Shown one piece after another: positions 7,121 through 26,332 of a DNA stretch of 64,000 nt (within the stretch, counting starts at the first letter, position 1; each line of letters opens with the position of its first letter). Under the pieces are notes generated by a model that did not search any database, was not told the origin of the DNA, and saw nothing but the letters and a program-made list of their open reading frames with translations. Position numbers and translations under genes: made by a program. The stretch is from positions 1 through 64,000 of the IMG/VR virus record IMGVR_UViG_3300044846_004119; one strand, written 5' to 3'. This DNA is from a virus.

Positions 7121-7666
7121 TTATTTTTTTATCCCCCAAAAATATAAATCACAGGCACGAGATTCAAATTCAAAATTAAACTCAGTGAATGTGTTATTAA
7201 TATCCATTACCGCTCTAATATCATCTTCTGTTAAATTTTTATAATAATTAGCCCATTTTTCATCGACACCTTCCAAAAACGGTGCATCTGTTGGACTACT
7301 TCTTAAGGTGCCATGTTCAGCTCTACCTGTTGATGCACAAGTAAAAACCAATAACCCACCTGGTCTTAATAATTTAACCATATTTTGTAATGTTCTTGCG
7401 TAGAACATATCATGTTCAAAACATTCTGCAGATGTAACAACATCAAATAGAAATCCTGAATCATATAAGTGACCAGGACAAACAACATCAACGTTATTTC
7501 CCTTACCTAAATCTACACCCACATAATAAAATGGTTGCTCAAATGAATGTTTAATGTTCCCATTGATATCGAGAGACCCAATATCTAATACTTTAACGTC
7601 AGTAAAAAACTTTGGGAGGTGGTCTTTTACTCTTTTAAAAAAATCTTGTTGTAATTCGTGTGACAT
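7121..7666 (-). CDS. Class I SAM-dependent methyltransferase
   Basis: VLDIGSLDING, YVGVDLG.G.NVDVV, FDVVTSAECFEHD, LRPGGLLVFT. Confidence 0.85.
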   Translation of the reverse strand: MSHELQQDFFKRVKDHLPKFFTDVKVLDIGSLDINGNIKHSFEQPFYYVGVDLGKGNNVDVVCPGHLYDSGFLFDVVTSAECFEHDMFYARTLQNMVKLLRPGGLLVFTCASTGRAEHGTLRSSPTDAPFLEGVDEKWANYYKNLTEDDIRAVMDINNTFTEFNFEFESRACDLYFWGIKK

Positions 7667-7667
7667 G

Positions 7668-8645
7668 TTAATTAAATTCTATTAATCCTTTTTCTTTTAT
7701 TTGTTCTAAATTAGACTCGTTTAGTGTCATTTGTTTAACATACTCTAATGTATTACCTTCGTACACCTCAACAACTAATTTATCGTCCCTTAATGATAAG
7801 GGTGTATAAAACCAATGTGTAGGATAAACAATCTTATCCTCAACCAATTTATCATTAACTTTAACAACAACTCGGTAATTATAAGAATTCCTCTCCCCAC
7901 TATGACAATATAATATAGGGGTTGACGGGTCTTTAATGTTATGTAATACCTCAATCATAAAATTTTCAACTCTAAATAAGTTGATATCGCTTTCACTAAA
8001 GTATTCACTTGAGTGTTCATTAATGATTAAAAACTCATGTTCGTAATTGTGTAACTTTTGGAAAAACGCCAATTCTAATGTTAATGGCATTAAATGTTCA
8101 TACCACTCATTTTCATTTACTGGTAATTTTAATATCTCATTAAAGTAGGACGGTGTAATCCCGAATAGTTGTGTCTCATAAACATAAGACCCATTATCTC
8201 TATACTCCTCAGGTTTAAAGAAAATACATTTCTTTTTTTCCTCAACCATAGTATCAACCAATTTATTTAATTTTCTAACATCATTTTCCGAGAATAAATT
8301 ATCATTCTCAATAAAATAAACAAAATCGTATTTTTTTATATCCGCAAATTTAAACGCGTTAAACATATTTTGACAAATCGGTAACGAATGTCTTGAGTTA
8401 TTAACCGTTATGGAAAAAGAGTTAGTTTTAAACCAATAACATAGTGATTTATCTAATGGAGTAAGGGTTTGATTTTTATCATAGATATAATAATCAACCA
8501 TTAACTGTAGTTCAATTGATACAGGATAATGACTAACCAACATAAAATCAAAACCACTATCTTTTAGTGAATTTATTTCATTAATTAACACCTCTTCTTT
8601 TTTTGGTGTGTTTGGGTAAGCCCCTATAACAATTAATTTTTTCAT
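7668..8645 (-). CDS. Putative GT-A-like glycan-modifying protein (domain also present inside the next gene)
   Basis: IVIGAYPNT...LVSHYPVS...MVDYYIYD...YFIENDN closely matches the middle of ORF 8642..11329. Confidence 0.6.
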   Translation of the reverse strand: MKKLIVIGAYPNTPKKEEVLINEINSLKDSGFDFMLVSHYPVSIELQLMVDYYIYDKNQTLTPLDKSLCYWFKTNSFSITVNNSRHSLPICQNMFNAFKFADIKKYDFVYFIENDNLFSENDVRKLNKLVDTMVEEKKKCIFFKPEEYRDNGSYVYETQLFGITPSYFNEILKLPVNENEWYEHLMPLTLELAFFQKLHNYEHEFLIINEHSSEYFSESDINLFRVENFMIEVLHNIKDPSTPILYCHSGERNSYNYRVVVKVNDKLVEDKIVYPTHWFYTPLSLRDDKLVVEVYEGNTLEYVKQMTLNESNLEQIKEKGLIEFN

Positions 8646-11329
8646 TCTTTTATAAATGTTTTATGTCCTTTATCTATAAGTGATACACCATCAGCTTGAG
8701 TTGTAATACGTTTATTTAAGATTCCCATATTTAATGAATTTTCCCCAAAAATAATATTAAAGAATGTGTCGGCACAATCCCATTTATGATTTCTTAATTT
8801 ATCTTTTAAAAATTCTCTACTTTTTGCGGGAAATAAAATACATTGTAACCCAATAATTTTATCACAGATAAACAGTATGTCTTGGTTAGGTATTTCTCTA
8901 ACAACTAATGATTGGTGCCACCCAAAATCTAATGTTTTAATATCCCCAAATGAAAAATACCGAATATCTTCTTGGTTTATAATTTCACAAGATTGTTTCA
9001 CTTTCTCAATAAACTCATTAATCGGCACCTCAATTAAACAATCTCCCTCACAAACCATTAAGAAATCTAAATCATTGTCGAACTCAGATAAAATACCGTT
9101 TTTGAATGAATCAAAACACCCGTAATGTGCTGGTGTTAAAGCGTACCCATATTCAGTGTCCGTTTCGTCATATTGGTCCATTCTAACGTTATGAGGTCTA
9201 ACACAATTATGTGATGGTGGTAATGACGTATACAATTCATTGGTATGTAAAACATACTTGATTCCATAAGGAATTACTTGTTGTACCGACTCTCTGGAAA
9301 GAATTTCTCTTTCATCATTATTAGTTGTTTGTAAATGAACTAATTTGATTTTAGGTAGTTTTTTATATTTGAACCATCCGTTGTTTTTATAACTGATAAC
9401 GGTTTCATTATTTAATACATATGACTCTATTTTATACTGAATACCACCCTCAAAAAAAGTTAGTTTAATTTCAGTGGGATTTCCATCAAAATCAATCTCC
9501 TTTAAGAATTCACGATTATTAAGAATATTAAACGATTTTGAATAAATGGTTTCATTATTTTTATTAATCTCAACATTAACGGTTCTATCATCAATATTAT
9601 ATGTAAAGAAATAAAATACCCATTTATTTTGTGTGTTTAATATTGGTAGTATTGAATAGTATTCTGAGTTAGATGAAACACCTTTACCTGAATTAATTAA
9701 GAACGTGTTTTGTTCATTTGTTATGATATTAACGTTGGTATCATTTATTAATTTTTTATAAAAGAAATCCTCTAAAAAGTTTTGGCAATTATTTATTTCA
9801 CATTCTGATTTATAAATTTCTTTAGTTGTTATATGTGAAAATTTATTTAAAAAGAAATCGGTTTTAAATGTCATTGCGGTAGTTTCAATACCAACATTAG
9901 ATGCTGTAGGTAATGTACACAAGAACGCATCTTTTTCATCCAAAGATTCAAACGATTGATTTACATATTCAATGTCATCATGATGTAATATCACATCGTA
10001 GGTTATATAAAATACTTTATTAAAATTAAAATCTTTAGCGGATTTAAACCCATTAATTAAATTAGTTAAAACAGGTAACGATTGGTTAGTATCTTTTAAT
10101 CCATTAATATTAATCTCAACATCAAACTCTGGTTTATAATTATAAAACTTAGTATAGTAAGAATGTTCAGTTGTTGGGTTATTTGAATCAAAAATATAAT
10201 AGTCCACCATTTTTTGAATCTCATCCGATACTGGATAATGAGAAACCAACATTACTTTTCTACCTAATTTTTTAACTGACTCAATACACTCAACAGTTAA
10301 TTTTTCACGTGATTTAGTGTTTGGGTAAGTACCGACAATGACCAATTCATTGTTATCGTACTTTTCCTTACGCGGATTTAAAATAGATAATAAATTAGAA
10401 ATGTCAGTATCAACATTACCCGTTAAAAAAGTAATATTTTCGTAATTATCATACTTTCCACAATAAACATCAAGATTATACATCATCATAGGAATCCTAT
10501 ACTCTAACGCCTCTTTCAATGCGATTGGATTTAGTTCTTTATTATGTCTATCACCTTTTGATGGGAATAGGAATAAATCTGACGCCTCAATAAACGACGG
10601 TACATCTTTTCTTTCACTCCAGATAACACAGTTATCCGGTTTATTATTAATTAAAGGTTCCCAATAAGATTTAAAATTATCCGCCTGATTACCTAAGAAA
10701 TGAAATTTTATTTTATAATCTTTTAATTTATGAGCAATTTCAAAAATATAAGATTGATTTTTTCTTGATGTAAAAAGGCCAACATTTAATACGTGTTTAT
10801 ATGATGGGTCAAAACCGAGCAAATCTTGGTTTTGTTTTTTATTCTTATCTTTATAGTCGACAGGATATTCAACTATTTCATATGGGATATCATATATCGA
10901 ATACCTAAAGGCATTAAACGCACTAACAAAAATAAATTTATCAGGAAACCATCTTTTAGATGACACAGGAAAACTTGAGTCGTGTGTTGTCTCTAATATA
11001 GTATAGGCTCTACCCTCTCGATATAATTCTTTTGTGACAGAGTCATCCATGAAAAATTCAGGGAATTCTTCCATACTAACAACATCAGGTTTAAACTCAT
11101 TAACAATTCTAATTAACTCGTTTTTATCCTCCCCTAATGAATGAAAATTATTACCTAACAAATTTTGTATTTGATTTCTTTGGACAACGTAAGACCACGC
11201 AACAAATGCGTACTCAACGCACTTAATTTCATATTCATCGTTTATTAATTGTATTTTATTTAAAGTTACTTGAGGCGCACCACCAGTGCTTAAATGAGGG
11301 GAAATTACTAATATTTTTTTCTTTTCCAT
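8642..11329 (-). CDS. Multidomain glycosyltransferase: GT4 + GT-A-like domain + GT25-like C-terminus
   Basis: HLSTGGAPQV, VLNVGLFTSRKNQ, ASDLFLFPS...ELNPIALKEAL (GT4). C-term TPAHYGCFDSF...FLMVCEGD is reminiscent of GT25 GC..SH / EDD motifs. Confidence 0.75.
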   Translation of the reverse strand: MEKKKILVISPHLSTGGAPQVTLNKIQLINDEYEIKCVEYAFVAWSYVVQRNQIQNLLGNNFHSLGEDKNELIRIVNEFKPDVVSMEEFPEFFMDDSVTKELYREGRAYTILETTHDSSFPVSSKRWFPDKFIFVSAFNAFRYSIYDIPYEIVEYPVDYKDKNKKQNQDLLGFDPSYKHVLNVGLFTSRKNQSYIFEIAHKLKDYKIKFHFLGNQADNFKSYWEPLINNKPDNCVIWSERKDVPSFIEASDLFLFPSKGDRHNKELNPIALKEALEYRIPMMMYNLDVYCGKYDNYENITFLTGNVDTDISNLLSILNPRKEKYDNNELVIVGTYPNTKSREKLTVECIESVKKLGRKVMLVSHYPVSDEIQKMVDYYIFDSNNPTTEHSYYTKFYNYKPEFDVEININGLKDTNQSLPVLTNLINGFKSAKDFNFNKVFYITYDVILHHDDIEYVNQSFESLDEKDAFLCTLPTASNVGIETTAMTFKTDFFLNKFSHITTKEIYKSECEINNCQNFLEDFFYKKLINDTNVNIITNEQNTFLINSGKGVSSNSEYYSILPILNTQNKWVFYFFTYNIDDRTVNVEINKNNETIYSKSFNILNNREFLKEIDFDGNPTEIKLTFFEGGIQYKIESYVLNNETVISYKNNGWFKYKKLPKIKLVHLQTTNNDEREILSRESVQQVIPYGIKYVLHTNELYTSLPPSHNCVRPHNVRMDQYDETDTEYGYALTPAHYGCFDSFKNGILSEFDNDLDFLMVCEGDCLIEVPINEFIEKVKQSCEIINQEDIRYFSFGDIKTLDFGWHQSLVVREIPNQDILFICDKIIGLQCILFPAKSREFLKDKLRNHKWDCADTFFNIIFGENSLNMGILNKRITTQADGVSLIDKGHKTFIKE

Positions 11330-11331
11330 TG

Positions 11332-12282
11332 TTATATTAAATTGTTGTTATAAGCGTAGATTAATCCAATATCATTAGACCCAAAAGTGTCTTCAATTAT
11401 AAAGTGGTTTAATTTTAATATTTCAATAACCTCATCATAAATTTCTCTTGAGTGGTATTCCATGGCAATCTTACCAACATTGTTTTGTAAGTATTCTTTA
11501 TTGATAGTACGGAATAAATCTAATTCACCCCCTTCACAGTCGACTTTTAAGAAATCTATTCGAGGAATATCATAATCAGATATTAATTGATTAATGGTGG
11601 TTGTCTCAACAATTTCTTCACCAATAACACTTGATGGGCGAAACCCGTTTTTATTTTTTTGTGAAAAATTATTACCATTAACTTCGGTAATCATAAATTT
11701 TTCAAAACCGTTTTCACTACTAATTGATTTATTAATACAAGTTACATTATATTCTAAAAGATTTTGTTTCATACTCTTAAAGGTTGCTTTTAGAGGTTCA
11801 ACGGCATAAACTTTTTTTGGATTAAACATTTGTGAGTATAATGAGAAAACCCCATAATTAGCTCCAATGTCAACAACAACATCATTAATATTAAGTCTAA
11901 CAAAATCTCTTTCGTATACTTTATCATAAAAGATTTCTGTGACAATTGGGAATAAATCATCCCCCAAATGAGATAATTTAACTTGTTTTGAGTTAATTAC
12001 TAAAAATCTATTTTGACCAAATAGTTTTAATTCCTGAGAATATTGTAGGTCACCATACATAATTGATAAGGTTATGTTTCTAAGTCTTTTCGCGTTAGAT
12101 TCACCAGTTGATATCCACCAATTGGTTCCTTTTTGTAACCCCATGTTTGATTTGTGTACGGTTAACCCCGTATTGTCATCGATAATTGAGACCTCGTATG
12201 TTTCTTTTATGTCATCACCATTAAAGTCAAAATGGATTACGCCATTTTCTTCAATATTAGTTACTGTAAAAATATTATTCAT
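11332..12282 (-). CDS. FkbM-family methyltransferase
   Basis: VVVDIGANYGVFS, VYAVEP, IDFLKVDCEGGE, IAMEYH. Confidence 0.9.
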   Translation of the reverse strand: MNNIFTVTNIEENGVIHFDFNGDDIKETYEVSIIDDNTGLTVHKSNMGLQKGTNWWISTGESNAKRLRNITLSIMYGDLQYSQELKLFGQNRFLVINSKQVKLSHLGDDLFPIVTEIFYDKVYERDFVRLNINDVVVDIGANYGVFSLYSQMFNPKKVYAVEPLKATFKSMKQNLLEYNVTCINKSISSENGFEKFMITEVNGNNFSQKNKNGFRPSSVIGEEIVETTTINQLISDYDIPRIDFLKVDCEGGELDLFRTINKEYLQNNVGKIAMEYHSREIYDEVIEILKLNHFIIEDTFGSNDIGLIYAYNNNLI

Positions 12283-12283
12283 A

Positions 12284-12439
12284 TTATATGTGTATAAATT
12301 CGTTATGGATTATTTGTTTGTTTAATGTCACCTCAACTCTAAATTTTTTGAACTCATTTTTTAAGTTTATCCAAGGACGTAAACACTCATCAATATATTC
12401 TTCGGAGTTGTATACCGAAAGTAATATTCCTATTTTCAT
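12284..12439 (-). pseudogene. 51-aa remnant beginning with a GT2-type N-terminus
   Basis: Hand translation: MKIGILLSVYNSEEYIDECLRPWINLKNEFKKFRVEVTLNKQIIHNEFIHI*. The ATG overlaps the TGA of the GT9 gene; the GT2-like strand-1/YN.E..I.ECL motif stops abruptly. Confidence 0.6.
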
Positions 12440-13377
12440 ATAATTTCTAAAATTTTATTAAACACTTGGTCAACCGATGGATGACATTCAAATGTGGGTT
12501 TATTTTCCAAACAATTAATTAATGGAGGCACTCCTTGAATATCTCCCCATTCCTTCACCCCATATTTCATATCAGAACCGCAGAACAAACTACACCCACC
12601 ACCAACATAATGGTATTTATAATCTTGGGAACCGTTTCGATACGGAGCTCTAAATTCTTTGTTAATTGAGCTACCTAATTGTAAAATATTAGAATCGGTT
12701 GTTCCGGCTAAGTGTAATAAACCCGAATCCATTGTGATAAAACACATTGATTTATCAATCAAATGCCATGACTGACTTAATGTTGTTTTATTCATTAGGT
12801 TAATTCCGTTTTTGATTTCAAAATTAAAGATTGGTTTCTTAACATTAAAAAATCCTACTTCGCTAGATTCTTTTCCTATTGAAACAACACTAATGTTTTG
12901 TTCATTTAATCTTTTAGTTAACTCCATCCATTTAACCGCATCCCATGTTCTACTTGGCCAGTTTTGTACAGGATGAATTAGTACGTATTTATCAGGTAAC
13001 TTATTAATTGGTTCGAAAGTGTCGGGAATATAATCCAACCCCATCTCATCTTTAGTTAACATAAACCCAAGTTTAATTGCGTGATATTGTCTTATGTCTA
13101 TTCTATTATGTTTGAACTCAATACCCTTATTATTTTTTTGACCATTTTCATAAAATGAATTATGAGATATAAAATTTGAATTTATAAAGTCTCGATTAAT
13201 TGAACTTGATTGGTATACCTTTTCAACCAACGGATTATTCTTAAATAACTCAGGAAAATCTGTTACAACAATAATTTTTGAGTTATACGAGTCATATAAT
13301 TTTCTAAGGACAGGTGTGGAACATAAAGTATCCCCAATGGCCTTTGCTTCTGTTAAATCAAGACATATTTTTTTCAT
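12436..13377 (-). CDS. GT9-family (heptosyltransferase-like) glycosyltransferase
   Basis: AIGDTLCSTPVLRKL, YVLIHP...WPSRTW...W, FITMDSGLLHLAGT, Cys-rich C-terminus (CSLFC...NC...FECHP). Confidence 0.85.
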   Translation of the reverse strand: MKKICLDLTEAKAIGDTLCSTPVLRKLYDSYNSKIIVVTDFPELFKNNPLVEKVYQSSSINRDFINSNFISHNSFYENGQKNNKGIEFKHNRIDIRQYHAIKLGFMLTKDEMGLDYIPDTFEPINKLPDKYVLIHPVQNWPSRTWDAVKWMELTKRLNEQNISVVSIGKESSEVGFFNVKKPIFNFEIKNGINLMNKTTLSQSWHLIDKSMCFITMDSGLLHLAGTTDSNILQLGSSINKEFRAPYRNGSQDYKYHYVGGGCSLFCGSDMKYGVKEWGDIQGVPPLINCLENKPTFECHPSVDQVFNKILEII

Positions 13378-13468: not shown

Positions 13469-16400
13469 ATGACGAGTCTTGTAATAACTAGTTTGAGTGG
13501 GGTTGGCCCTTTTACCGTAACATTATGCGATATAACTAACACGTATTGTTATATTGTTGCGACTAATGTAACAACCACTCCATTACTAGTTAATATACCA
13601 ATACAGTTAACCAATGTTCAACAAATATTGGTTAATGTTACCGATTCCTATAATTGCGTTGATTTACAATTATATAGTTGCCCTGAACCAACACCAACAT
13701 CAACAATAACCCCAACACCAACACAAACCTTAGGGGGATGTAATTGTATTACATTTACAAACTCAACACTGTTTAACCTTAATTTTGGGTTAGCCGAATG
13801 TAACGGAATTATATTATCGTCAGTAATAAATCCTGGTGTAACTTTGTATTATTGTGGACAATCCCCATATGGGGATGTAGGTGTCGGTATTAATGTTGGT
13901 AATATTTGTATTAATACATGTTATCCACCGACAAATACTCCTACACCAACAAATACACCAACATCTGTAACACCAACACCTACACCAACTAACACACCTA
14001 CACAAACTGAAACTCCAACAAATACGCCAACTAACACCCAAACGCCAACTAACACGCCAACTTCAACTGAAACTCCAACTAATACCCCAACTAATACACC
14101 TACACCAACACCAACTGAAACTCCGACTGAAACTCCGACTGAAACTCCGACAAATACACCAACTGAAACACCAACACCAACTGAAACACCAACACCAACT
14201 GAAACACCATCCCAAACACCTACACAAACACCGACTAACACACCAACAAACACACCAACACCAGGATTATCACCAACCACAACCCCAACTAACACTCAAA
14301 CACCAACAAATACACCAACAAATACAGTAACACCAACTAACACTCCAACTCCAACCCAAACACCGACAAATACACCAACACCAGGATTATCACCAACCAC
14401 AACCCCAACTAACACTCAAACTCCAACCCAAACACCAACAAATACAGTAACACCAACTAACACTTCAAGTCCAACCCAAACACCGACAAATACACCAACA
14501 CCAGGATTATCACCAACCACAACCCCAACTAACACTCCAACACCAACTGAAACACCAACAAATACCCCAACGCCAACTGAAACGCCAACAAATACCCCAA
14601 CTGAAACGCCAACAAATACCCCAACTGAAACGCCAACTGAAACGCCAACTAACACTCCTACCCCAACAAACACACCAACGCCAGGATTATCACCAACCAC
14701 AACCCCAACTAACACTCCAACTCCAACCCAAACACCAACAAATACACCAACAAATACAGTAACACCAACTAACACTCCAACTCCAACCCAAACACCGACA
14801 AATACACCAACAAGTACACCGACGGTAACTCCGACAAATACTCCAACTAAAACTCCGACAAATACTCCTACCCCAACAAATACAGTAACACCAGGATTAT
14901 CACCAACCACAACCCCAACTAACACCCCAACACCTACATCAACCCAAACACCAACAAATACCCCAACCCAAACACCTACCAACACACCAACAAATACCCA
15001 AACTCCAACAAATACCACAACCCAAACACCTACCAACACGCCGACAAATACTCCAACTCAAACACCAACACCAGGATTATCACCAACCACAACCTCAACT
15101 AACACTCCAACACCAACTGAAACTCCAACTAAAACGCCGACAAATACTCCAACAAGTACTCCAACTGAAACTCCAACTAACACACCTACACAAACTCCAA
15201 CAAATACAGTAACACCAACAAATACAGTAACACCAACAAATACTCCTACGACAACAAATACAGTAACACCAACAAATACTGTAACCCCAACAAATACAGT
15301 AACACCAACTAAAACTCCGACAAATACACCAACTAAAACACCAACTAAAACCCCAACTAAAACTCCAACCCAAACTCCAACACCAACTAAAACTCCAACC
15401 CAAACCCAAACTCCAACCCAAACTCCAACTCCTACATCAACGTATATTCCGTCTTGGGACTGTAATGGTATTTATTGTTTTGACCCAGGTGATGGTACAG
15501 GATATTTCTCTACATTTGAAGAGTGTGACAGTATATGTAACACTTATGATTGTGTCGAGGGTAATTGTGAACAAAATTTCACTGGTGAGGGAGAATATGT
15601 TGGTATAATTGAGTGTTTAACTTTTTGTTTACCAACACCAACTCCAACCCAAACACCAACTAATACTCCAACAAATACTCCAACGCCAACTGAAACACCA
15701 ACTAATACTCCAACAAATACTCCAACGCCAACTCAAACACCAACGACAACTGAAACGCCAACCCAAACGCCAACCCAAACGCCAACTAACACTTCAACAC
15801 CAACTAACACTCCAACACCAACTGAAACGCCAACCCAAACGCCAACTAACACTTCAACACCAACTAACACTCCAACACCAACTGAAACACCAACTAATAC
15901 TCCAACAAATACTCCAACGCCAACCCAAACACCAACTAACACTCCAACGCCAACTAACACTCCAACACCAACTGAAACGCCAACCCAAACACCAACAAAC
16001 ACTCCAACACCAACTAATACTCCAACACCAACTGAAACTCCAACCCAAACACCAACAAATACCCCAACACCAACTGAAACGCCAACAAATACCCCAACAC
16101 CAACTGAAACGCCAACAAATACTCCAACTGAAACACCAACTGAAACGCCAACAAATACTCCAACTGAAACACCAACTAACACTCCAACCCAAACTAACAC
16201 ACCAAGTCCAACTGAAACTCCAACAAATACTCCAACTGAAACACCAACAAATACTCCTACCCCAACTGAAACTCCAACAAATACCCCAACTGAAACTCCA
16301 ACAAATACTCCAACTGAAACTCCAACAAATACGCCCACCCCAACTGAAACTCCAACAAATACCCCAACTGAAACTCCAACAAATACTCCAACTGAAACTC

Positions 16401-18733
16401 CGACCCAAACTCCGACCCAAACACCAACTGAAACTCCGACAAATACTCCAACTGAAACTCCAACAAATACGCCCACACCAACTAACACGCCAACACCAAC
16501 AGTTACGCCAACACCAACTAACACTCCAACACCAACTGAAACGCCAACAAATACCCCAACTGAAACACCAACAAATACTCCAACTGAAACACCAACAAAT
16601 ACTCCAACTGAAACGCCAACAAATACTCCAACTGAAACTCCAACAAATACTCCAACTGAAACCCCAACAAATACTCCAACAAATACTCCAACTGAAACTC
16701 CAACTAACACTCCAACCCCAACTGAAACTCCAACAAATACTCCAACTGAAACGCCAACTAACACTCCAACCCAAACTGAAACACCAACAAATACGCCAAC
16801 AAATACTCCAACGCCAACTAACACTCCAACCCCAACTGAAACACCAACAAATACCCCAACTAACACTCCAACACCAACTCAAACGCCTACACCAACTAAC
16901 ACTCCGACACCAACAGTCACACTTGGGTTAACTCCAACACCAACAAATACTTCAACCCCGACAAATACTATAACGCCAACAAATACCCCTACAACAACAA
17001 ATACTCCAACCCAAACACCGACTAACACCCCAACCCCAACAAATACACCAACCCAAACATCAACTAACACCCCAACCCAAACTAACACTCCGACAAATAC
17101 TCCAACTCAAACTCCAACAAATACTCCAACAAATACTCTAACACCAACACCAACAAATACACCAACAAATACAACAACAAATACACCAACAAATACTGTG
17201 ACTCCAACCCAAACACCAACTAACACTCCAACCCAAACACCAACTAACACTCCAACACCAACAAATACACCAACTCAAACACCGACAAATACTCCGACAA
17301 ATACTGTAACTAACACCCAAACACCAACAAATACACCAACAAATACACCAACTCAAACACCAACTGAAACTCCAACAAATACTCCGACAAATACTGTAAC
17401 TAACACCCAAACACCAACAAATACGCCAACAAATACTGTGACTAACACCCCAACTGAAACTCCAACAAATACGCCAACCCAAACTAACACTCCAACTAAT
17501 ACTGTAACACCAACAGTTACACCAACATCACCGCCAGAATTACCAATTTATACTGGTGAAACTGTTTGTGATATTCCATATAACATTAACACAGGGATTA
17601 CAGGTTCTTGGCAGATTACAGTTCAGTTAGGTTCGTATACGGGAACCGTTGCCTGTACTTTTAATGCATATCAGGTACCAGATAAGTTCCAAGTTTTTTG
17701 GGATGGGAATTTGGTTATTGATACAGGGTTTAGGGGTAACGCCATTTTTAATTCACAATTAAATGCCTTAGGATATCCAAGTGTTGTAGGTACAGGTTTT
17801 GTTACTGCTTCTTGGACTAAATTAACAGCGTTTCCTGATTTCGCAACAGTTGTGGTTACCGCTCCTATTGATTCAACTAGATTTTATTTTAAATTGGGTT
17901 GTCCGGCTGTAACACCAACACCAACGGTAACCCCAACCCACACACCAGCACCAACAAATACCCCAACTAATACTCCAACACCTACACCTTTACCGATAAT
18001 ACCACTATGTTCTGTATTAATTAATGGGGGTACTGACGTATCCGCCTATTTTCCATCATCAAATACTAACGTATTGTTAGGTAATTCTTTTACTTTTTCC
18101 CCAGATATTGCACATACAACAACTAAACTATGGTTGTATGATGGGACAATTCTAGAATATGACATAACATTAAGTCCTTGGTCGGCAACGTTCAACAGAA
18201 CTATCGAATACCCTTTAGGTGTTAATTTAGGGAATGGTTTAGGCTCCATTACCAACACTGAGTTAATCTCAACAGACGATACAGTAACACCTAATCAAAT
18301 AATTGTTTTAGATATTACCACAAGTACCGCAGTCTCAACTGTAATTGGAACACTAGGGGTTGGTAGGTATGTTTCGGGTGATATTTTATTAACAACTACA
18401 AATAAAATATTAGTTACTAATGAAGGTAATGATGGAGTATTCCTTAGTCAATATAGTTATCCGTCAGGTACTTTTGAAGTTGAGGTCGATATTACGTCAA
18501 CCACAAGCCAACCGTATGGTTTATTTATTGATAGTGGTAATATATATGTTTGTAACAGTGGTGGTGAAATATATAATGTTGATGTTAACTTCCCATACAC
18601 ACAAACATTATCTAATATCTCAGGATTATTTGTTGGAGGAGCATCTCAAGTACCAAGTTGTTGTGATACTAACCTAAACTTACCACCAACTCCTACACCA
18701 ACAAATACTCCAACACCTACACCAATCGCATAA
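13469..18733 (+). CDS. Mucin-like Thr-Pro repeat protein with interspersed Cys-containing globular domains (probable virion surface fibre)
   Basis: 1754 aa; about 1150 aa of [11 protein letters not shown] repeats; N-terminal Cys-rich domains, a central Cys doublet, a beta-sandwich-like domain and a C-terminal propeller-like domain. Confidence 0.9.
13925..17530 (+). repeat. Thr-Pro coding microsatellite tracts (13925-15440 and 15631-17530)
   Basis: ACN-CCN dinucleotide-codon repeats with AAY/GAA/CAA spacers; the block ccaggattatcaccaaccacaac occurs at 14261, 14381, 14501, 14681, 14891 and 15071. Confidence 0.95.
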
Positions 18734-18821
18734 CCAACAACAGAATTATTCATAAAAAAACTAAAGGGTAATACTTTATTAACAACAAATATTTTTTATA
18801 TTTTATTTAAAAATAAAAACC

Positions 18822-20069
18822 ATGAAAATATTTGTTCAGATAGCCTCTTATCGTGACCCCCAACTTATCCCAACAATCAAATCAATGTTGGAGAATGCCA
18901 AAAACCCAAAAAATTTAGTAATCGGAATTTGTCGTCAATACCATCCTGAGGATGGGTTTGATGATTTATCAGAATATGCTAAAGATAAACGATTTAGAGT
19001 TATTGATGTTTTATATTCTGACGCTAAAGGAGTTTGTTGGGCAAGAAACCAAGTTCAACAATTATATAAAGGCGAAGAATATACCCTACAAATAGACTCC
19101 CATATGAGATTTGAAAAATATTGGGACGACACCTTAATCAAAATGGTTAAACAACTTCAAAAGAAAGGATTTGAGAAACCTTTATTAACAGGATACGTAT
19201 CTTCATTTGACCCGGACAATGACCCGGAAGGCAGAGTTACGGTACCTTGGAGAATGGCTTTTGATAGATTCATTCCTGAAGGGGCGGTATTCTTTTTACC
19301 TGAAACAATTCCTGGATGGGAAACCCTTAAAGAACCGGTTACTTCACGATTTTATTCTGCCCATATGGCATTCACTCTTGGTCAATTTAGTGTTGAAGTT
19401 CAACACGACCCTGAATTTTATTTTCACGGAGAAGAGATATCAATCGCCGTTAGAGCATTCACTCACGGATATGATTTATTCCACCCACATAAAGTTGTGA
19501 TTTGGCACGAATACACCCGTAAAGGTAGAACAAAACAATGGGACGACGATAAAGAGTGGGGAAAGAAAAATGAATTATCCCATAAAAAAAATCGTCAACT
19601 ATTTGGTATGGATGGTGAAGAGGTAACAATGGATTTTAGTTATTATGGATTTGGAACCGAAAGAACTTTAAAAGACTATGAGATTTATTCAGGTCTTAGA
19701 TTTTCAAATAGAGCCGCACAACAATATACTTTAGATAAACATTACGCACCTAATCCAACAATTTATGAAACTGAAGAAGAATGGTTAGCAAGTTACGCCA
19801 CTATTTTTAAACATTGTATTGATGTTGGTTTTACTCAAGTTCCAGAAAATGACTATGATTTTTGGGCGGTAATTTTTGAGGGTAGTAATGGTAATGAGTT
19901 ATATAGGAAAGATGCGGATAAGGAAGAAATTAATCGATTAAAATCTGACAAAGATGGATATTGTAAAATATGGAGAGATTTTCAAACAACTGAGAAACCA
20001 AATAAATGGATTGTATGGCCACATAGTGAGTCTAAAGGTTGGTGTGAGATAATAACAGGTAACTTATAA
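18822..20069 (+). CDS. GT60-family (Skp1 hydroxyproline/polypeptide alpha-GlcNAc transferase-like, Pfam GlcNAc type) glycosyltransferase
   Basis: IFVQIASYRDP, KGVCWARN..Q.LY.GEEYTLQIDSHMRF...WD, FYSAHMAF, HDPEFYFHGEEISIAVRAFTHGYDLFHP...IWHEY. Confidence 0.9.
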   Translation: MKIFVQIASYRDPQLIPTIKSMLENAKNPKNLVIGICRQYHPEDGFDDLSEYAKDKRFRVIDVLYSDAKGVCWARNQVQQLYKGEEYTLQIDSHMRFEKYWDDTLIKMVKQLQKKGFEKPLLTGYVSSFDPDNDPEGRVTVPWRMAFDRFIPEGAVFFLPETIPGWETLKEPVTSRFYSAHMAFTLGQFSVEVQHDPEFYFHGEEISIAVRAFTHGYDLFHPHKVVIWHEYTRKGRTKQWDDDKEWGKKNELSHKKNRQLFGMDGEEVTMDFSYYGFGTERTLKDYEIYSGLRFSNRAAQQYTLDKHYAPNPTIYETEEEWLASYATIFKHCIDVGFTQVPENDYDFWAVIFEGSNGNELYRKDADKEEINRLKSDKDGYCKIWRDFQTTEKPNKWIVWPHSESKGWCEIITGNL

Positions 20070-20071
20070 AA

Positions 20072-20920
20072 ATGGTTAAAATTTACGATGAATATGATTC
20101 ATATTTAGAGGGAGGACATTTTTCATCACCAAGAAAAAATTTGGGGAATAAATTGTTTATATATTCCGCTTGTAGAATAATTAGTGAACTATTAGGGTAT
20201 GAGTTAATATCTCCCGAAAACGCGTTAGTAAGAAGAGAAGATACCGAAAATGGACAATATAAAGAAATCCTATTCCCATTTAAAGGTGTTAAAGGAAATA
20301 TTGTGGATGACCCAATTAAAGTTATTCAAGATGGCGACATCATACAATTAGGTAGTATTGAAAATTTAATACAATCCTACCCAAATCATGGATTTTTAAA
20401 TCAATCATATTTTTCAAAATATGATTACATTAAACCATATAAGACTAAGGTTAAAGAATATTTTAAAAGTATCGTTAAAGATAAAAGGGTTGGTAACGAT
20501 TTAGTAATTATGTTAAGAAGTAGTAATTACGACGGAAGTTTTGTTTTACCCGACAGTTATTACCTTAATATTATATCTCAAGAAACTTTTGATAATTTAT
20601 ATATTTCATTTGACCATATAAACAAACATCAATCATTAATTAATAAATTAGAGAAATATAACCCTAAATTAATTGATGGTGATATACTTGAAGTTTTTTC
20701 AGAAATCACATCATTTAATACAATAATCGCCGCTCAAGGAACATTTTCTTTTTGGGCTTGTTTTTTATCTAACGCCAATAAAATATATTGGCCGATTACC
20801 AATGATGGTCCAAATTCCGGTAAAAACTCAAATAACCCCGTGTTTAACTCATATGTTAATTTAACGGTCGATGATGAACCAAGATATGAATTAATAAACG
20901 TAACAGATATATACAAATGA
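20072..20920 (+). CDS. GT11-like (alpha-1,2-fucosyltransferase-like) glycosyltransferase
   Basis: NLGNKLFIYS (cf. GRLGNQMFQYA), YFSKYDY, VIMLRSSNY, DSYY, IIAAQGTFSFWACFLS (cf. STFSWWAA). Confidence 0.7.
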   Translation: MVKIYDEYDSYLEGGHFSSPRKNLGNKLFIYSACRIISELLGYELISPENALVRREDTENGQYKEILFPFKGVKGNIVDDPIKVIQDGDIIQLGSIENLIQSYPNHGFLNQSYFSKYDYIKPYKTKVKEYFKSIVKDKRVGNDLVIMLRSSNYDGSFVLPDSYYLNIISQETFDNLYISFDHINKHQSLINKLEKYNPKLIDGDILEVFSEITSFNTIIAAQGTFSFWACFLSNANKIYWPITNDGPNSGKNSNNPVFNSYVNLTVDDEPRYELINVTDIYK

Positions 20921-21597
20921 TAAAAACAATCAATTTTAGTCTTTTTGGTACTGAAATGAAGTATTACATGGGAGCCGAAAAAAATGTTATAATTAATAAA
21001 GAATTATTACCAGATTGGACAACCGTAATATATTACCATCCTCAAAACATAATTCAAGGTTATGTCGAAAAACTGTCTTCATTAGGTGCGACAATGGTGG
21101 ATGTGTCAAATATAAAGTTAGGTGATAAAGAATCAATTCACTTCCCATATTTTTGGAGATTTCTTTCATTTTTACAAGACAGTCCCTCAATAGTTAGAGA
21201 TTTGGACAGTAGAATTTCTGAAAGAGAAGTAAAATATATTAGAAAATGGGAAGAAACAAATAAAGATTATTTTATTATCCGAGACCATCCGTGGCATGCA
21301 CCCGTACCAAGTGGGTTATTTGGTATTAAGAAAAAAATAGAAGAGTTTGAAAAACACTTTATTGAGTTTGTTAATATTGATGAGTTACGTTGGGGGTCCG
21401 ACCAAGAAATTTTAAGAATTTATATGGAAAATATTAGTGACGAAAATGTGTTTTATTGTGGTTACGATATTCAAACCAATTATATACATAGAGACGATAA
21501 AACTTTTTTTATTGGAATGCAAATGAATGAAAATGATGAACCAACAGTCCCAAGTGGCGTACAGTGTTTAAATTACCTAAACGAAATAAATTTATAA
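20917..21597 (+). CDS. Putative GT-A fold glycosyltransferase
   Basis: INFSLFG...WRFL...IVRDLDSRIS.RE...W...IIRDHPWH...SGLFG...DQEIL, a conserved pattern in viral and bacterial glycan clusters. Confidence 0.6.
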   Translation: MIKTINFSLFGTEMKYYMGAEKNVIINKELLPDWTTVIYYHPQNIIQGYVEKLSSLGATMVDVSNIKLGDKESIHFPYFWRFLSFLQDSPSIVRDLDSRISEREVKYIRKWEETNKDYFIIRDHPWHAPVPSGLFGIKKKIEEFEKHFIEFVNIDELRWGSDQEILRIYMENISDENVFYCGYDIQTNYIHRDDKTFFIGMQMNENDEPTVPSGVQCLNYLNEINL

Positions 21598-21598
21598 A

Positions 21599-22360
21599 AT
21601 GAAGTATTGTTTTACAACTTTGGCTGTTGGTGAGCCATATGAAGAATTAACCGCAAAGTTATACACAAGTTTAAGAGATAAAACTCAAAACTGTGAATTT
21701 TTTATAACAACAAATAACCCTAACTTCCCTGATTTAGGTGAAAAAATTCACATTAATAGAGAGTCATTACAAAGTCTACACGATTCTAAAGGTGGGTTTA
21801 GTTTTCATTTAAATTATAAGTGTTTATCAATTAAACACGTTTTGTCTAATGAAAAACAAATGTTAGCGTTAGACACAGAATTTAAAAAATTTGATTACGT
21901 AATCTTTACTGACGGTGATTGGATTTTGGAAAGCGGGTTTTCTGAAGAGAAGATTTTAAATATGTTAAATTATATGGAAACCGAAGGATTTGATTTTGCA
22001 TTTGAAAGACCTGCAAGTATCGGTGATGGTAGACGAGACCCTGAAAATAGTTTCTATAGAGATAAAATTTATGATTATGATATATTAGAATATGATAAAT
22101 GGGATGAGGCTCACGTTGTTAATGAACAATGTTTGGTATTTAAAAATAATTATAAATTTAGATTTTTTGCCCAAAGATGGGAACAATTTTTATGGTATTC
22201 AATCCATAATGATATTAGAAACTACCCTGACGGTTTTGAGATTGGGGTATCGGCTTTAGAAGCAGGGATGAAATGGAACTACAATGGAGTGTTTAATCAC
22301 TTTTTACAAGGATGTTTCGGATTTTATACTAAACTTGGTGATTATCACATTAGATTTTAA
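21599..22360 (+). CDS. Putative GT-A fold glycosyltransferase
   Basis: FTTLAVGEPY, K.LSIK, YVIFTDGDW (DxD) in a glyco-operon context. Confidence 0.55.
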   Translation: MKYCFTTLAVGEPYEELTAKLYTSLRDKTQNCEFFITTNNPNFPDLGEKIHINRESLQSLHDSKGGFSFHLNYKCLSIKHVLSNEKQMLALDTEFKKFDYVIFTDGDWILESGFSEEKILNMLNYMETEGFDFAFERPASIGDGRRDPENSFYRDKIYDYDILEYDKWDEAHVVNEQCLVFKNNYKFRFFAQRWEQFLWYSIHNDIRNYPDGFEIGVSALEAGMKWNYNGVFNHFLQGCFGFYTKLGDYHIRF

Positions 22361-22375
22361 TTATATATATATATT

Positions 22376-22912
22376 ATGTCACACAAAGAACAACAAGATT
22401 TCCTAACGTATGTTAGAGACAAATTCCCAAATAAATTTGAGAATTGTAGAGTTTTAGATATCGGCTCATTAGATATCAATGGTAATAACAGGTATTTGTT
22501 TACAAATTACGAATACATCGGACTAGATATTGGTGAAGGAAACAACGTAGATGTTGTATGTAGAGGTCACGAATATAATGATGAAAAATTATTTGACGTA
22601 ATTGTGTCTTCAGAATGTTTTGAACACGATGAATTTTGGGAATTAACAATAAAGAAAGGTATCGATTTACTTAAACCAGATGGCGTGTTTTTATTTACTT
22701 GCGCCACAACAGGTAGACCGGAACACGGAACAAAAAGAACATCACCAAGCGATAGTCCATTTACTTCAAGTTTAGAAAACAATTATTATCGAAATTTAGA
22801 AGAAGATGATATTCGACAATCAATTAATGTTGATGAAATATTTTCAGAATATGAATTTCAAAGTAGACTAAATTGGCCACAAGATTTGTATTTTTGGGGT
22901 ATTAAAAAATAA
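22376..22912 (+). CDS. Class I SAM-dependent methyltransferase, paralog of 7121..7666
   Basis: MSH..QQDF...VLDIGSLDING...SECFEHD...LFTCATTGRPEHGT.R.SP.D.PF...DLYFWGIKK shared with the leftward copy. Confidence 0.85.
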   Translation: MSHKEQQDFLTYVRDKFPNKFENCRVLDIGSLDINGNNRYLFTNYEYIGLDIGEGNNVDVVCRGHEYNDEKLFDVIVSSECFEHDEFWELTIKKGIDLLKPDGVFLFTCATTGRPEHGTKRTSPSDSPFTSSLENNYYRNLEEDDIRQSINVDEIFSEYEFQSRLNWPQDLYFWGIKK

Positions 22913-22915
22913 AAT

Positions 22916-23839
22916 ATGAAATCAAAAATTGTAACGGCTTATTGGATGGATGTTGAGGGGTATCCATTTCAAGGAGTACTTCCAGTTAGAAAAATAAGAT
23001 ATCAAGGTTCTTTAATTTCTCATTGTACTGGTAGTGGACTACCGGTTATTTGCTATACTCATAGTAAAAATTATGACGAACTTAATGATATTAAAGTAAA
23101 GTATAATTTAACTAATTTAGAGTTGAAAATATTAGAATTATCTGATGTAAAATATCACGCTGAAATTGAAATGATTAGAAATAATAATTTTGATACCGAT
23201 TTGGATGGTAGAGGTCCTGAAATAATGTGGGGAAAATTTGATGTGTTAGAAAGAGAACTTGACGGATTTGATAGGGTTTATTGGGTGGATGTTGGTTTAC
23301 AACACCCGGGCATATTCCCTTGGATGTACTCTAAAGTTCACAATGAGAATTCTGAAAATTTAGGCGTACCAACAAATTGGTGGGCTCATTTAGATGTGTT
23401 TAATTTTTCAAAATTAATTGATAGTGAAGTGTATGATAAATTAAATAAAATCTGTGAAAATAAAATAATGTTTGTTTGTTCATATGGTCCTCAAATAAGT
23501 TATCCGTTTTTAAATTATGGAATATTAAACAAATCGTTTGAATCTCCATACCCGGTTGGTGGTATGTTTGGTGGAGATGTTCAAGTATTAAAGAAATATA
23601 TAAATTTATTTTGGGAATTCACTGAGAAAATTTTAGAAAAAAACTTACTTTGTACTGAAGAAGTAATTATGAAACCGTCCTACGATTTAATTGATAACGA
23701 TGAAAAGGTTACACTTATGTTTAACGCGTTTGCGTCTGGGGAACACGATGATTATCACTACACTATGTGGAATGAAGGAAAAAATACACCAAAACCTTTC
23801 TATATGATGTGGCACAATATAAAAAATTTTAAAATATGA
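22916..23839 (+). CDS. HtrL/YibB (WlaTC)-like glycosyltransferase
   Basis: IVTAYW, MWGKF, VYWVDVGL, VGGMFGG, LLCTEEVIM. Confidence 0.6.
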   Translation: MKSKIVTAYWMDVEGYPFQGVLPVRKIRYQGSLISHCTGSGLPVICYTHSKNYDELNDIKVKYNLTNLELKILELSDVKYHAEIEMIRNNNFDTDLDGRGPEIMWGKFDVLERELDGFDRVYWVDVGLQHPGIFPWMYSKVHNENSENLGVPTNWWAHLDVFNFSKLIDSEVYDKLNKICENKIMFVCSYGPQISYPFLNYGILNKSFESPYPVGGMFGGDVQVLKKYINLFWEFTEKILEKNLLCTEEVIMKPSYDLIDNDEKVTLMFNAFASGEHDDYHYTMWNEGKNTPKPFYMMWHNIKNFKI

Positions 23840-25669: not shown

Positions 25670-26332
25670 ATGGATTTCTACATTAAGAAAAACGCAACCT
25701 TACCTGTGATTAAACTCCAAGTGGTGAAGGATGGTCGAAGTGACTATGATAGCTTCATGAAAACTATTGAGTTATCGGCAATATTCTTTTCAATGGTTGA
25801 TTCTGATACAGGTATTCCAAAAATTAGTTCAAGACCGGCAGGATTTGTTGAGAAAACATTCTTAGACCCCAACGCCGAACCAGAATATTACATTTATTAT
25901 CAATTTACCTCAAAAGACACTAATAGAGTTGGTTCATATGAAGGACAATTTATGTTAAGAAACGATGATGGTGTTTTAATATTGCCAATACGTGAAAAAT
26001 TAAACATCAACATCCAAGACTCATTTATTGCGGATGACTTAGTTTATGATAGTTGTTATGTTTCAGAATTCCCTTGTTGTGTTAACGGACCTTTTGTTTC
26101 GACAACAACAACTTCTCCATGTCCAAGTTGTCCAACATGTCCTGAACCAACACCGACACCTCAACCAACAACAACTACTACGACATATAACCCAACAACA
26201 ACAACCACACATTCGCCAACTCCAACACCAACATTAACACCAACGCCAGAACCCGAAATTTTAATCAATCCTATCTTAGTTGGTGAAGACCAATATTTGA
26301 GTGTTGGGGATAATGAATATTTAGAATATTAA
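25670..26332 (+). CDS. Structural protein with BppU-like N-terminal domain and Thr/Pro-rich tail
   Basis: FYIKKNATLP.I.LQV...YYQF...DT...G.YEGQF; then TTTTSPCPSCPTCPEPTPTPQPTTTTTT. Confidence 0.6.
   Translation: MDFYIKKNATLPVIKLQVVKDGRSDYDSFMKTIELSAIFFSMVDSDTGIPKISSRPAGFVEKTFLDPNAEPEYYIYYQFTSKDTNRVGSYEGQFMLRNDDGVLILPIREKLNINIQDSFIADDLVYDSCYVSEFPCCVNGPFVSTTTTSPCPSCPTCPEPTPTPQPTTTTTTYNPTTTTTHSPTPTPTLTPTPEPEILINPILVGEDQYLSVGDNEYLEY

Follow-up and report, generated by a model that had tools for sequence, protein, structure and literature searches.

The DNA analysed here (the window) spans the initial 64 kb of an IMG/VR virus contig that is 177 kb long and has an estimated completeness of 60%. 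The contig carries tail sheath, DNA polymerase and helicase genes, which identifies the virus as a jumbo myophage. Within the window, a gene for a giant Thr-Pro (TP) repeat protein is followed by a gene for a predicted polypeptide glycosyltransferase of family GT60 (Table 1). Mucin-type O-glycosylation that starts with a polypeptide HexNAc-transferase is considered a trait of eukaryotes; to our knowledge, all characterised GT60s are from protists. The locus poses the question of whether a phage encodes such a system and, if so, which residues of which proteins it modifies.

Table 1 Features of the glycosylation island and its surroundings (window coordinates).
Feature	Coordinates	Strand	Evidence
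Collagen-like tail-fibre protein, truncated by the window start	2..1483	+	Pfam Collagen; PHROG tail fibre families
GT2 + GT4 + Aah/TibC-type protein O-heptosyltransferase fusion, 932 aa	3619..6417	-	Profile match TIGR04414
PF13640 2OG-Fe(II) oxygenase, OGFOD1/Tpa1/PHD-like fold	6419..7108	-	PF13640, 60 bits
Divergent operon: methyltransferase, 325-aa ORF, 895-aa GT4-containing protein, FkbM methyltransferase, GT9-like 313-aa protein	7121..13377	-	Profile matches
Mucin-like Thr-Pro repeat protein, 1,754 aa, proposed acceptor	13469..18733	+	Stop-free translation
N1 (residues 1-82) and N2 (90-154), Cys-containing, short TP linker between	13469..13930	+	31-55% identity in about 55 loci
TP tract A (155-657), (T-P-T-x)n, punctuated by six PGLSPTTT	13931..15439	+	
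MID (658-722), Cys-rich 65-aa bead separating the tracts	15440..15634	+	
TP tract B (723-1358)	15635..17542	+	
C1 (1359-1478) and C2 (1511-1736), globular modules	17543..18676	+	
GT60 (PF11397), predicted polypeptide HexNAc-transferase, 415 aa	18822..20069	+	Profile, fold and conserved residues
Distant GT11-like glycosyltransferase, strain-specific cassette gene	20072..20920	+	Sub-threshold Pfam match
Variable cassette: two ORFs, class-I methyltransferase (22376-22912), 307-aa ORF	20917..23839	+	Profile matches; comparison of loci
HtrL/YibB-domain protein, 558 aa	23836..25512	+	Kept alongside GT60 in 72/80 loci
220-aa protein, conserved N-terminal domain and C-terminal Thr/Pro tract (141-198)	25670..26332	+	

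A GT60 enzyme with the fold of polypeptide transferases

An earlier note on this DNA had read the gene that starts 88 bp past the stop codon of the repeat-protein gene as a GT60. Both the spacing and the motifs on which that reading was based were borne out (IASYRDP, residues 7-13; QIDSHMRF, residues 90-97; GEEI, residues 203-206), and a profile search places the ORF well inside the family: PF11397 matches it with 238.2 bits against a cut-off of 21 (E = 2.3e-70). The match was seen again in a search of the genome, and PF11397 is found in 100% of the members among the Atlas structural neighbours of the protein.

The AF2 model of the enzyme (pLDDT 96) contains a GT-A catalytic domain (approximately residues 1-325) and a β-rich C-terminal domain (approximately residues 325-415). 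In this model the first Rossmann strand is located right at the N-terminus and there is no membrane anchor. By fold, GT27 polypeptide GalNAc-transferases make up the whole of the best 29 PDB entries (Z 19.5-22.8, rmsd 3.2-3.8 Å over 260-282 residues), whereas generic GT-A enzymes score 18 or less. A search of the PDB by sequence gave only chance matches to T7 RNA polymerase and no GT60 structure. Residues D92 and H94 of a D-x-H motif and H229 are invariant in 45 homologues, as are E204 and E205; the former three fit the DxH plus His metal site of the GT27 type. Profile and predicted structure together support the assignment of this ORF as a true GT60 enzyme with a polypeptide-transferase-type fold.

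The Thr-Pro repeat protein

The N-terminal module of the protein encoded upstream is conserved and its C-terminal modules vary, with two long TP tracts in between. About 1,140-1,180 of its 1,754 residues belong to a (T-P-T-x)n repeat that runs between small globular domains. The two tracts (1,139 residues counted) comprise 562 Thr, 286 Pro, 130 Asn, 50 Glu and 45 Gln, and their most frequent units are TPTNTP (93), TPTETP (44) and TPTQTP (27). This gene is not an assembly artefact because independent assemblies from other samples (loci L006-L008) carry it at a similar length; the L006 version is 91% identical and differs by indels of 2-20 residues.

A comparison of N1/N2, MID, C1 and C2 with Pfam, PHROGs and a phage database returned nothing beyond one weak PHROG match, and N1/N2 had no match in any of the three. 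The C2 module also occurs in a SprB-repeat protein encoded elsewhere in the phage genome, and an Atlas feature search gave a weak lead towards a β-propeller-like fold for it. The architecture of the repeat protein suggests that N1 and N2 form a virion-attachment module.

The enzyme and Thr-Pro tracts recur together in phages and bacteria

We found 356 related loci in IMG/VR and kept 80 for comparison, which contain 63 distinct versions of the gene located directly upstream of the GT60 gene on the same strand. N1/N2 homology is present in this gene in about 55 of the 80 loci. A TP tract of 18-1,215 residues is carried by 53 of the 63 distinct versions. As the remaining 10 lack a tract, and as three loci (L066, L068 and L072) retain the GT60 with a TP tract in neither flanking gene, the adjacent gene is not the sole acceptor. 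The 220-aa protein encoded further downstream is a second candidate on the strength of its own tract: it has a homologue in 76 of the 80 loci, and 27 of its 48 complete distinct versions contain a TP tract. At least five TP-tract proteins are encoded by the phage genome, three of them, besides the two just described, outside the window.

Full-length GT60 relatives are present in more than 565 bacterial species. In a set of 80 bacterial loci, half of the TP/SP-tract ORFs (15 of 30) are no more than 1 kb from the GT60 gene, in a zone making up 19% of the flank (binomial p = 1.2e-4). A Thr/Ser-Pro-tract gene is found within this distance at 14 loci, and the other 66 have no such ORF with 50 or more tract residues. 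According to the record titles, the 14 paired loci belong to Bacteroidota, Gemmatimonadota, Acidobacteriota, Verrucomicrobiota, Actinomycetota and Pseudomonadota, plus one MAG contig labelled as Planctomycetota. The pair also occurs in a cultured bacterium, Tepidamorphus sp. 3E244 (locus L117), in which the neighbour is a Ser/Pro-rich protein. We also counted (TP)n-coding matches in six bacterial genomes, picked because an adjacent TP gene was present. Such matches are rare genome-wide, and in five of the six genomes half to all of them lie in the GT60-adjacent gene or within about 3 kb of it. The adjacent gene accounts for 26 of 27, 5 of 5, 3 of 3 and 1 of 2 matches in four of these genomes; in the fifth it contains 2 of 6, with 2 more about 3 kb away. 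The proposal of the earlier note that the Thr-Pro protein is the likely GT60 substrate is thus backed by a gene neighbourhood that recurs independently in phages and in several bacterial phyla.

A protist-like origin of the pathway is not supported by the distribution of the family in bacteria. In a tree built from phage and bacterial rows only, the phage GT60 clade nests among Bacteroidota. Full-length homologues with 44-50% identity to the phage enzyme are also encoded by the Xanthomonas jumbo phage XacN1 (ORF334; a cultured phage, 48% identity), Xoo-sp13 and the Stenotrophomonas phages CM1 and RAS14. These cluster with Betaproteobacteria, and monophyly of the phage sequences is rejected (p-AU = 8e-15). 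The GT60 genes of this group are located in a glycosylation cluster close to genes for baseplate and fibre proteins, but no giant mucin adjoins them, and a nearby 3,313-aa protein has short TP linkers only. XacN1 virions contain at least two glycoproteins (PMC5852040).

Hydroxyproline as an alternative acceptor

The island encodes a further enzyme that bears on the choice of the acceptor residue. The HxD...H oxygenase pointed out in the earlier note is present on the minus strand and matches PF13640, and a two-step route can be envisaged that parallels the modification of Skp1 by PhyA and Gnt1: the oxygenase would hydroxylate Pro of the TP tracts, and GlcNAc would be added to the hydroxyproline by the GT60. 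Gnt1 is itself a GT60 that depends on PhyA (PMC6939170). The oxygenase has the HxD...H...RxS set in a double-stranded β-helix; the iron triad (H123, D125, H192) and the 2OG-binding R206 are invariant among 36 homologues. Its model (pLDDT 96.6) is closest in fold to prolyl hydroxylases (OGFOD1, Z 22.2; Tpa1, 20.4; Dictyostelium PhyA, 17.9; PHD2, 17.1), but the sugar-nucleoside oxygenases PolD (20.1) and PasI (19.0) fit almost equally well.

The gene context argues against this route. The oxygenase gene is 11.7 kb from the GT60 gene and on the opposite strand. A search that detected it in the phage's own genome, as a positive control, found it in none of the 80 related phage loci and in none of four large relatives that have 87-89% identical GT60s, two of these relatives being 91% and 100% complete. 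Searches with an HMM of the 36 homologues and, by phmmer, with the fused oxygenase domains described below found no member of these subfamilies within 6-10 kb of 160 phage and bacterial GT60 loci. Fusions of PF11397 and PF13640 domains do occur in many alphaproteobacterial proteins of about 2,000 aa and in one chlorophyte (green-algal) cluster, so that the oxygenase may cooperate with the GT60 in this one phage; its identity to the fused oxygenase domains is only 24%. Taken together, a PhyA/Gnt1-type route has a precedent in fused proteins but lacks co-occurrence, and we consider it unlikely.

Proteins of the phage itself as the probable targets

The island is surrounded by fibre and tail genes. 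Residues 607-930 of the 932-aa fusion protein match TIGR04414 with 293.7 bits, above the curated equivalog cut-off of 200, and the presence of an Aah/TibC-type O-heptosyltransferase marks the locus as a protein-glycosylation island. This match points to protein targets rather than polysaccharide or DNA; the heptosyltransferase might act on the collagen-like tail-fibre protein. Intergenic scans for promoters, terminators and motifs gave no useful information in this AT-rich DNA.

The targets might nevertheless be proteins or glycans of the host, such as Thr-Pro-rich surface adhesins, modified for superinfection exclusion or host takeover, with the mucin-like gene being a mere neighbouring fibre gene. 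Host proteins of this type exist, as exported proteins with TP tails adjoin the bacterial GT60 homologues; furthermore, PHROGs classes the GT60 family with moron and auxiliary genes, and a few relatives retain the GT60 without flanking TP tracts. Considering, however, that (i) the GT60 is paired with a TP-bearing phage gene across most of the lineage, (ii) the TP-tract proteins of the phage itself number at least five, and (iii) the genes around the island encode fibre and tail proteins, a host target is quite improbable.

A non-protein acceptor, i.e. a polysaccharide or lipid-linked glycan that is extended or a modified DNA base that is glycosylated, is very improbable: phage glycosyltransferases often modify DNA (10.1101/2023.12.21.572611), the GT2, GT4 and GT9 enzymes of the island are typical of polysaccharide synthesis and generic GT-A polysaccharide enzymes match the GT60 fold at Z 16-18, but polypeptide transferases account for every one of the top fold matches, each GT60 characterised so far has a polypeptide acceptor, the GT60 family goes unmentioned in the DNA-glycosylation paper, and the TP genes beside the bacterial homologues would be left unexplained.

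A proposed model of phage mucin-type glycosylation

The explanation that best accounts for these findings is that a soluble cytoplasmic GT60 directly O-glycosylates Thr (and Ser) in the TP tracts of phage proteins, with the upstream protein as its main acceptor. We assign this reading a probability of roughly 0.6. Characterised eukaryotic GT60s transfer GlcNAc onto Thr of mucin-type repeats (PMC8724618). The phage enzyme would add a HexNAc, most likely α-GlcNAc from UDP-GlcNAc, straight onto Thr (and Ser) of the TP tracts during infection. The main acceptor would be the product of the gene 88 bp upstream, with about 560 Thr in its (T-P-T-x)n repeats, and the shorter TP linkers of modular phage proteins (the 220-aa protein and the three encoded outside the window) could serve as further ones.

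The HexNAc may then be extended and capped by other glycosyltransferases and methyltransferases of the island. The earlier note had ascribed extension to the GT11-like enzyme encoded next to the GT60, for which the case is weak: PF01531 matches this ORF with 16.4 bits, below the cut-off of 23.9, and over 42 residues only, and the gene is present in just 5 of the 80 loci. The ORF is only distantly GT11-like because PF01531 is found in no more than 16-31% of the members among its Atlas feature neighbours. The product of the pathway would be a long, stiff, protease-resistant 'bottle-brush' fibre, anchored to the virion by the conserved N-terminal module and touching the host or the environment with its variable C-terminal modules. 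Of the earlier interpretation, the true GT60 and the TP tract as acceptor are thus retained, a protist-like origin is not supported, and the hydroxyproline route and the GT11-like extension carry little weight.

Relation to known glycosylation systems

The polypeptide α-GlcNAc-transferases of Dictyostelium and Trypanosoma cruzi belong to the same Pfam and CAZy family as the phage enzyme, act on Thr in mucin-like Thr/Pro-rich repeats and, like it, are structural relatives of GT27 enzymes. They are Golgi membrane proteins, whereas the phage GT60 is predicted to be soluble in the bacterial cytoplasm, belongs to the Bacteroidota branch and has an extra β-rich C-terminal domain of about 90 aa in common with its bacterial relatives. 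The animal GT27 polypeptide GalNAc-transferases, which initiate dense O-glycans on Thr/Pro-rich mucin domains, are its best structural match and have the DxH metal motif in common with it; however, they form a different CAZy family (12-15% identity) and carry a ricin-type lectin domain where the phage enzyme has its small β domain.

The Skp1 pathway resembles the phage locus in that a cytoplasmic GT60 and a PHD-type oxygenase are encoded in one genome and in that their domain families are fused in some organisms. It modifies one hydroxyproline in one protein, in contrast to the hundreds of repeats in the phage, whose relatives have not kept the oxygenase with the GT60. In mycobacteriophage virions and in the capsid of chlorovirus PBCV-1, virus-encoded glycosyltransferases likewise decorate the virus's own structural proteins, but these enzymes are of other families and their acceptors differ. 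We know of no description of a GT60 or a mucin-like repeat protein in either system.

In our search of the literature on GT60/PF11397 in bacteria or phages, GT60 appeared solely in a list of viral auxiliary genes. As the same pairing of enzyme and repeat protein is found in bacteria of six phyla, it probably represents a form of mucin-type protein glycosylation in prokaryotes and phages that has not been described before. A broader reading, which we advance tentatively and at somewhat less than even odds, is that cytoplasmic mucin-type O-glycosylation by a GT60 and adjacent Thr-Pro repeat proteins is widespread in bacteria of at least six phyla and was captured at least twice from hosts by jumbo phages. 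In the phage lineage described here, the system would yield glycosylated fibres with TP tracts reaching about 1,200 residues (an extended length of roughly 300 nm), and slippage of the repeats would make the length change rapidly.

If the proposed model is true, this locus pairs a prokaryotic or phage GT60 with a candidate substrate for the first time, and it assigns a role to a gene family present on thousands of environmental phage contigs as well as in the bacterial species noted above. Alongside the mycobacteriophages, there would be another example of phages that glycosylate their virions with enzymes of their own, and a very different one: the sugars would be attached to a giant repeat protein that evolves fast and may influence adsorption, stability or protection against proteases.

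Fold and family of the GT60 enzyme

The earlier note's observation of a GT60 gene adjoining that of a Thr-Pro (TP) repeat protein is borne out. The GT60 product scores 238 bits against PF11397, and its match to PHROG 24687 spans the whole protein. In its AF2 model (pLDDT 96, alignment of 45 sequences), GT27 polypeptide GalNAc-transferases are the top structural matches by both Foldseek and VIA-align: 29 GT27 entries give Z scores of 19.5–22.8 and an rmsd of about 3.5 Å over 260–282 residues, with generic GT-A enzymes ranking next (Z ≤ 18). D92-x-H94, E204, E205 and H229 are invariant in the alignment, and D92-x-H94 with H229 fit the metal site typical of the GT27/GT60 group, a DxH motif plus a His. 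As the chain opens with the first β strand, the enzyme is predicted to lack a membrane anchor; residues 325–415 form a β-rich domain in the model that the structure searches hardly covered. Other phages encode proteins of about 800 residues in which GT7-type galactosyltransferase domains are joined to a GT60 domain (an Atlas cluster), which suggests a two-step enzyme that would initiate and extend.

The phage and its glycosylation island

Genes for a DNA polymerase, a helicase and a contractile tail sheath lie in the window, which covers the first 64 kb of a 177-kb IMG/VR contig (completeness estimate 60%). The nearest cultured relative of the sheath, that of Microcystis phage Mel-JY01, is only 32% identical. 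These features mark the virus as a jumbo myophage of a poorly sampled lineage. Its glycosylation island consists of a minus-strand operon and a plus-strand series that are transcribed divergently. The C-terminal third of the 932-residue fusion protein scores as an Aah/TibC protein O-heptosyltransferase (293.7 bits, curated cut-off 200), a putative second protein-directed initiating enzyme, which argues for protein glycosylation as the purpose of the island. A collagen-like fibre is a possible acceptor for this enzyme. The GT11-like ORF, to which the earlier note had assigned extension of the glycan, has a weak family call and occurs in only 5 of 80 related loci; it is part of a strain-specific cassette rather than a fixed partner of GT60. 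Elsewhere in the genome, RmlB-like (321 bits, cut-off 365) and RmlC-like (117 bits, cut-off 156) genes may provide a phage-made deoxy-sugar donor.

Features of the phage genome and of bacterial GT60 loci (L172 and L173, further stretches of the phage genome; L096–L151, bacterial loci)
Feature	Position	Strand
Collagen-like fibre	window 2–1483	
Glycosylation island	window 3245–26332	
DUF6165 protein		−
GT2+GT4+Aah/TibC-type fusion	window 3619–6417	−
PF13640 oxygenase	window 6419–7108	−
Methyltransferase; unknown ORF		−
GT4-containing 895-residue protein		−
FkbM methyltransferase; GT9-like protein		−
Repeat protein	window 13469–18733	+
N1; N2; MID; C1; C2 modules	residues 1–82; 90–154; 658–722; 1359–1478; 1511–1736	
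GT60	window 18822–20069	+
GT11-like ORF	window 20072–20920	+
Two unknown ORFs; methyltransferase; unknown ORF		+
HtrL/YibB-domain protein		+
220-residue protein with Thr/Pro tail		+
Thr-rich insert of tail sheath	window 43312–43430	
SprB-repeat protein	L172:3516–6803 (genome 87512–90799)	
Second mucin-like protein	L172:12664–16158 (genome 96666–100157)	−
RmlB-like dTDP-glucose 4,6-dehydratase	L173:1489–2385 (pair at genome about 139.6–141.3 kb)	
RmlC-like 3,5-epimerase	L173:2644–3165	
Small bacterial TP-tail proteins	L136:7479–8240; L146:7491–8126; L149:2792–3454; L151:2748–3473	
Bacterial Ser/Thr/Pro-repeat proteins	L096:4507–5688; L098:4000–5769	

The repeat protein comprises 1,754 residues, 1,139 of them in two tracts that set its five non-repeat modules apart. 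Thr makes up 49% of the tracts, at almost every other residue, and Pro 25%; the most frequent units are TPTNTP, TPTETP and TPTQTP. The tract DNA is a degenerate array with a unit-to-unit match of 60–90%. Because the same gene was found in assemblies of three other samples, and because the copy in phage locus L006 (91% identity) differs by 18 indels of 2–20 residues, the gene is real and its length changes through gain and loss of repeats. At least four further proteins of the phage carry TP tracts. The second mucin-like protein (1,164 residues, next to a DNA primase gene) has about 540 residues of TPTN-type repeat, as in the first, and several Cys-rich beads. In the SprB-repeat protein (1,095 residues, PF13573 at 69.6 bits) the C2 module recurs alongside a TP linker. 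The Thr-rich insert of the tail sheath (1,111 residues), with a few Pro and below the TP-tract threshold, could be a further glycosylation site on each sheath subunit.

Gene neighbourhoods and the likely acceptor

From 356 IMG/VR loci of the phage lineage with GT60 relatives, 80 were kept for neighbourhood comparison. The gene directly upstream is co-oriented with GT60, and its product has N1/N2 in common in about 55 of the 80 loci. Beyond N1/N2 this protein is variable (175 to >3,300 residues); TP tracts of 18–1,215 residues are present in 53 of its 63 distinct versions. The conserved core order is N1N2 protein, GT60, variable cassette, HtrL/YibB-domain protein (72 of 80 loci) and 220-residue protein (76 of 80). 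Of the 48 complete versions of this last protein, 27 have a TP tract.

Full-length GT60 relatives occur in more than 565 bacterial species. When 80 bacterial loci were scanned for ORFs that contain 50 or more residues of Thr/Ser-Pro tract, 15 of the 30 found lay within 1 kb of GT60, a zone that makes up 19% of the flank (binomial p = 1.2 × 10−4). The 14 loci with an adjoining tract gene are titled Bacteroidota, Gemmatimonadota, Acidobacteriota, Verrucomicrobiota, Actinomycetota and Pseudomonadota, and include one MAG contig labelled Planctomycetota. Several tract neighbours resemble exported proteins: a signal-like N-terminus with Arg-Arg precedes a TP tail. The small TP-tail proteins have this Arg-Arg start and a long tail, to which Halieaceae versions add a C-terminal membrane anchor; in the Gemmatimonadota (L104, L106) another conserved domain stands at the N-terminus. 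The closest bacterial relatives of the phage enzyme, on Saprospiraceae/Lewinellaceae MAG contigs L096 and L098, have a Ser/Thr/Pro-repeat protein just upstream on the opposite strand, the C-terminal part of which resembles a secretion-sorting domain; L096 (33% GC, 230 kb) might be phage DNA binned into a MAG.

Six genomes of 3.3–6 Mb, all picked for having the pair, were scanned for DNA coding for (TP)5–6. In four of them the gene adjoining GT60 held 26 of 27, 5 of 5, 3 of 3 and 1 of 2 of all matches; in a fifth it held 2 of 6, with 2 more about 3 kb away, and in the sixth the adjoining tract, which is Ser-rich, gave no match. TP-coding tracts are thus scarce elsewhere in these genomes, and chance adjacency to GT60 is very unlikely. 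As phage loci, bacterial loci and tract scarcity agree, the repeat protein is the likely acceptor, and to that extent the acceptor proposed earlier stands.

The oxygenase and the proposed hydroxyproline route

The earlier note had also placed a prolyl-hydroxylase-like enzyme in the pathway. The oxygenase has the HxD...H...R set and a confident structure model, best matched by the ribosomal prolyl hydroxylases OGFOD1 (Z 22.2) and Tpa1 (20.4), then by the sugar-nucleoside oxygenases PolD (20.1) and PasI (19.0), and then by Dictyostelium PhyA (17.9), a bacterial EF-Tu prolyl hydroxylase (17.4) and PHD2 (17.1). Its predicted fold is prolyl-hydroxylase-like, with the sugar-nucleoside enzymes close in score. 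The gene is absent from all 80 related phage loci and was not found in four large relatives, including genomes 91% and 100% complete, in a search for which the phage's own genome, as positive control, gave the match. Since the GT60s of the latter two are 87–89% identical to that of the window and would be expected to retain its acceptor, a strict requirement for hydroxyproline is unlikely.

Among the 120 longest GT60 relatives, about 40 come from Alphaproteobacteria; these proteins, each about 2,000 residues long, join several GT60 domains to PF13640 oxygenase domains and a peroxiredoxin domain (verified by hmmscan in two), and a green-algal Atlas cluster has the same GT60–PF13640 fusion. Judged by these fusions, the two families clearly cooperate in some lineages, and hydroxylation might therefore play a side role in this one phage, to which we give a small chance. 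Two proteins from Alphaproteobacteria/Rickettsiales MAGs, P0432 and P0443 (about 2,000 residues), with about four GT60 and two PF13640 domains (plus peroxiredoxin in P0432), look like single-chain hydroxylate-then-glycosylate machines. Beyond its own phage lineage, the closest homologues of the oxygenase (54–58% identity) lie on contigs with giant-virus markers (L087–L091; DUF5772, DUF5891, DUF5832, TFIIS zinc ribbon, GT90, PIF1), and the gene family is common to phages and giant viruses of eukaryotes.

Origin of the enzyme

In a tree of 81 phage and bacterial GT60s, the window enzyme and its IMG/VR relatives nest within a Bacteroidota-dominated clade (support 97), and XacN1-type phage enzymes cluster with Betaproteobacteria (support 100). 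Constraining all phage rows, a group named after the first tree was seen, to one clade lowers the log-likelihood by 163 units (p-AU 8 × 10−15). The phylogeny that the earlier note had called for does not indicate a protist source; together with the SprB repeats, it suggests a Bacteroidota host and gene capture from bacteria. As the pairing of GT60 with a tract gene appears on separate branches, it is not a single inherited gene order.

Discussion

The GT60s characterised so far are protist enzymes (PMC8724618, PMC6939170), and our literature search found no paper on bacterial or phage GT60s or on their pairing with Thr-Pro proteins. In the XacN1 paper (PMC5852040), a GT60 homologue is listed as a glycosyltransferase and virions are reported to contain at least two glycoproteins, with no connection drawn between these findings. 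Glycosylation of virions by phage enzymes is established in mycobacteriophages. The best-supported reading, to which we give a probability of about 0.6, is direct glycosylation: GT60 would place O-HexNAc on Thr in the TP tracts of the adjoining repeat protein, and the other TP-linker proteins of the phage would be further acceptors.
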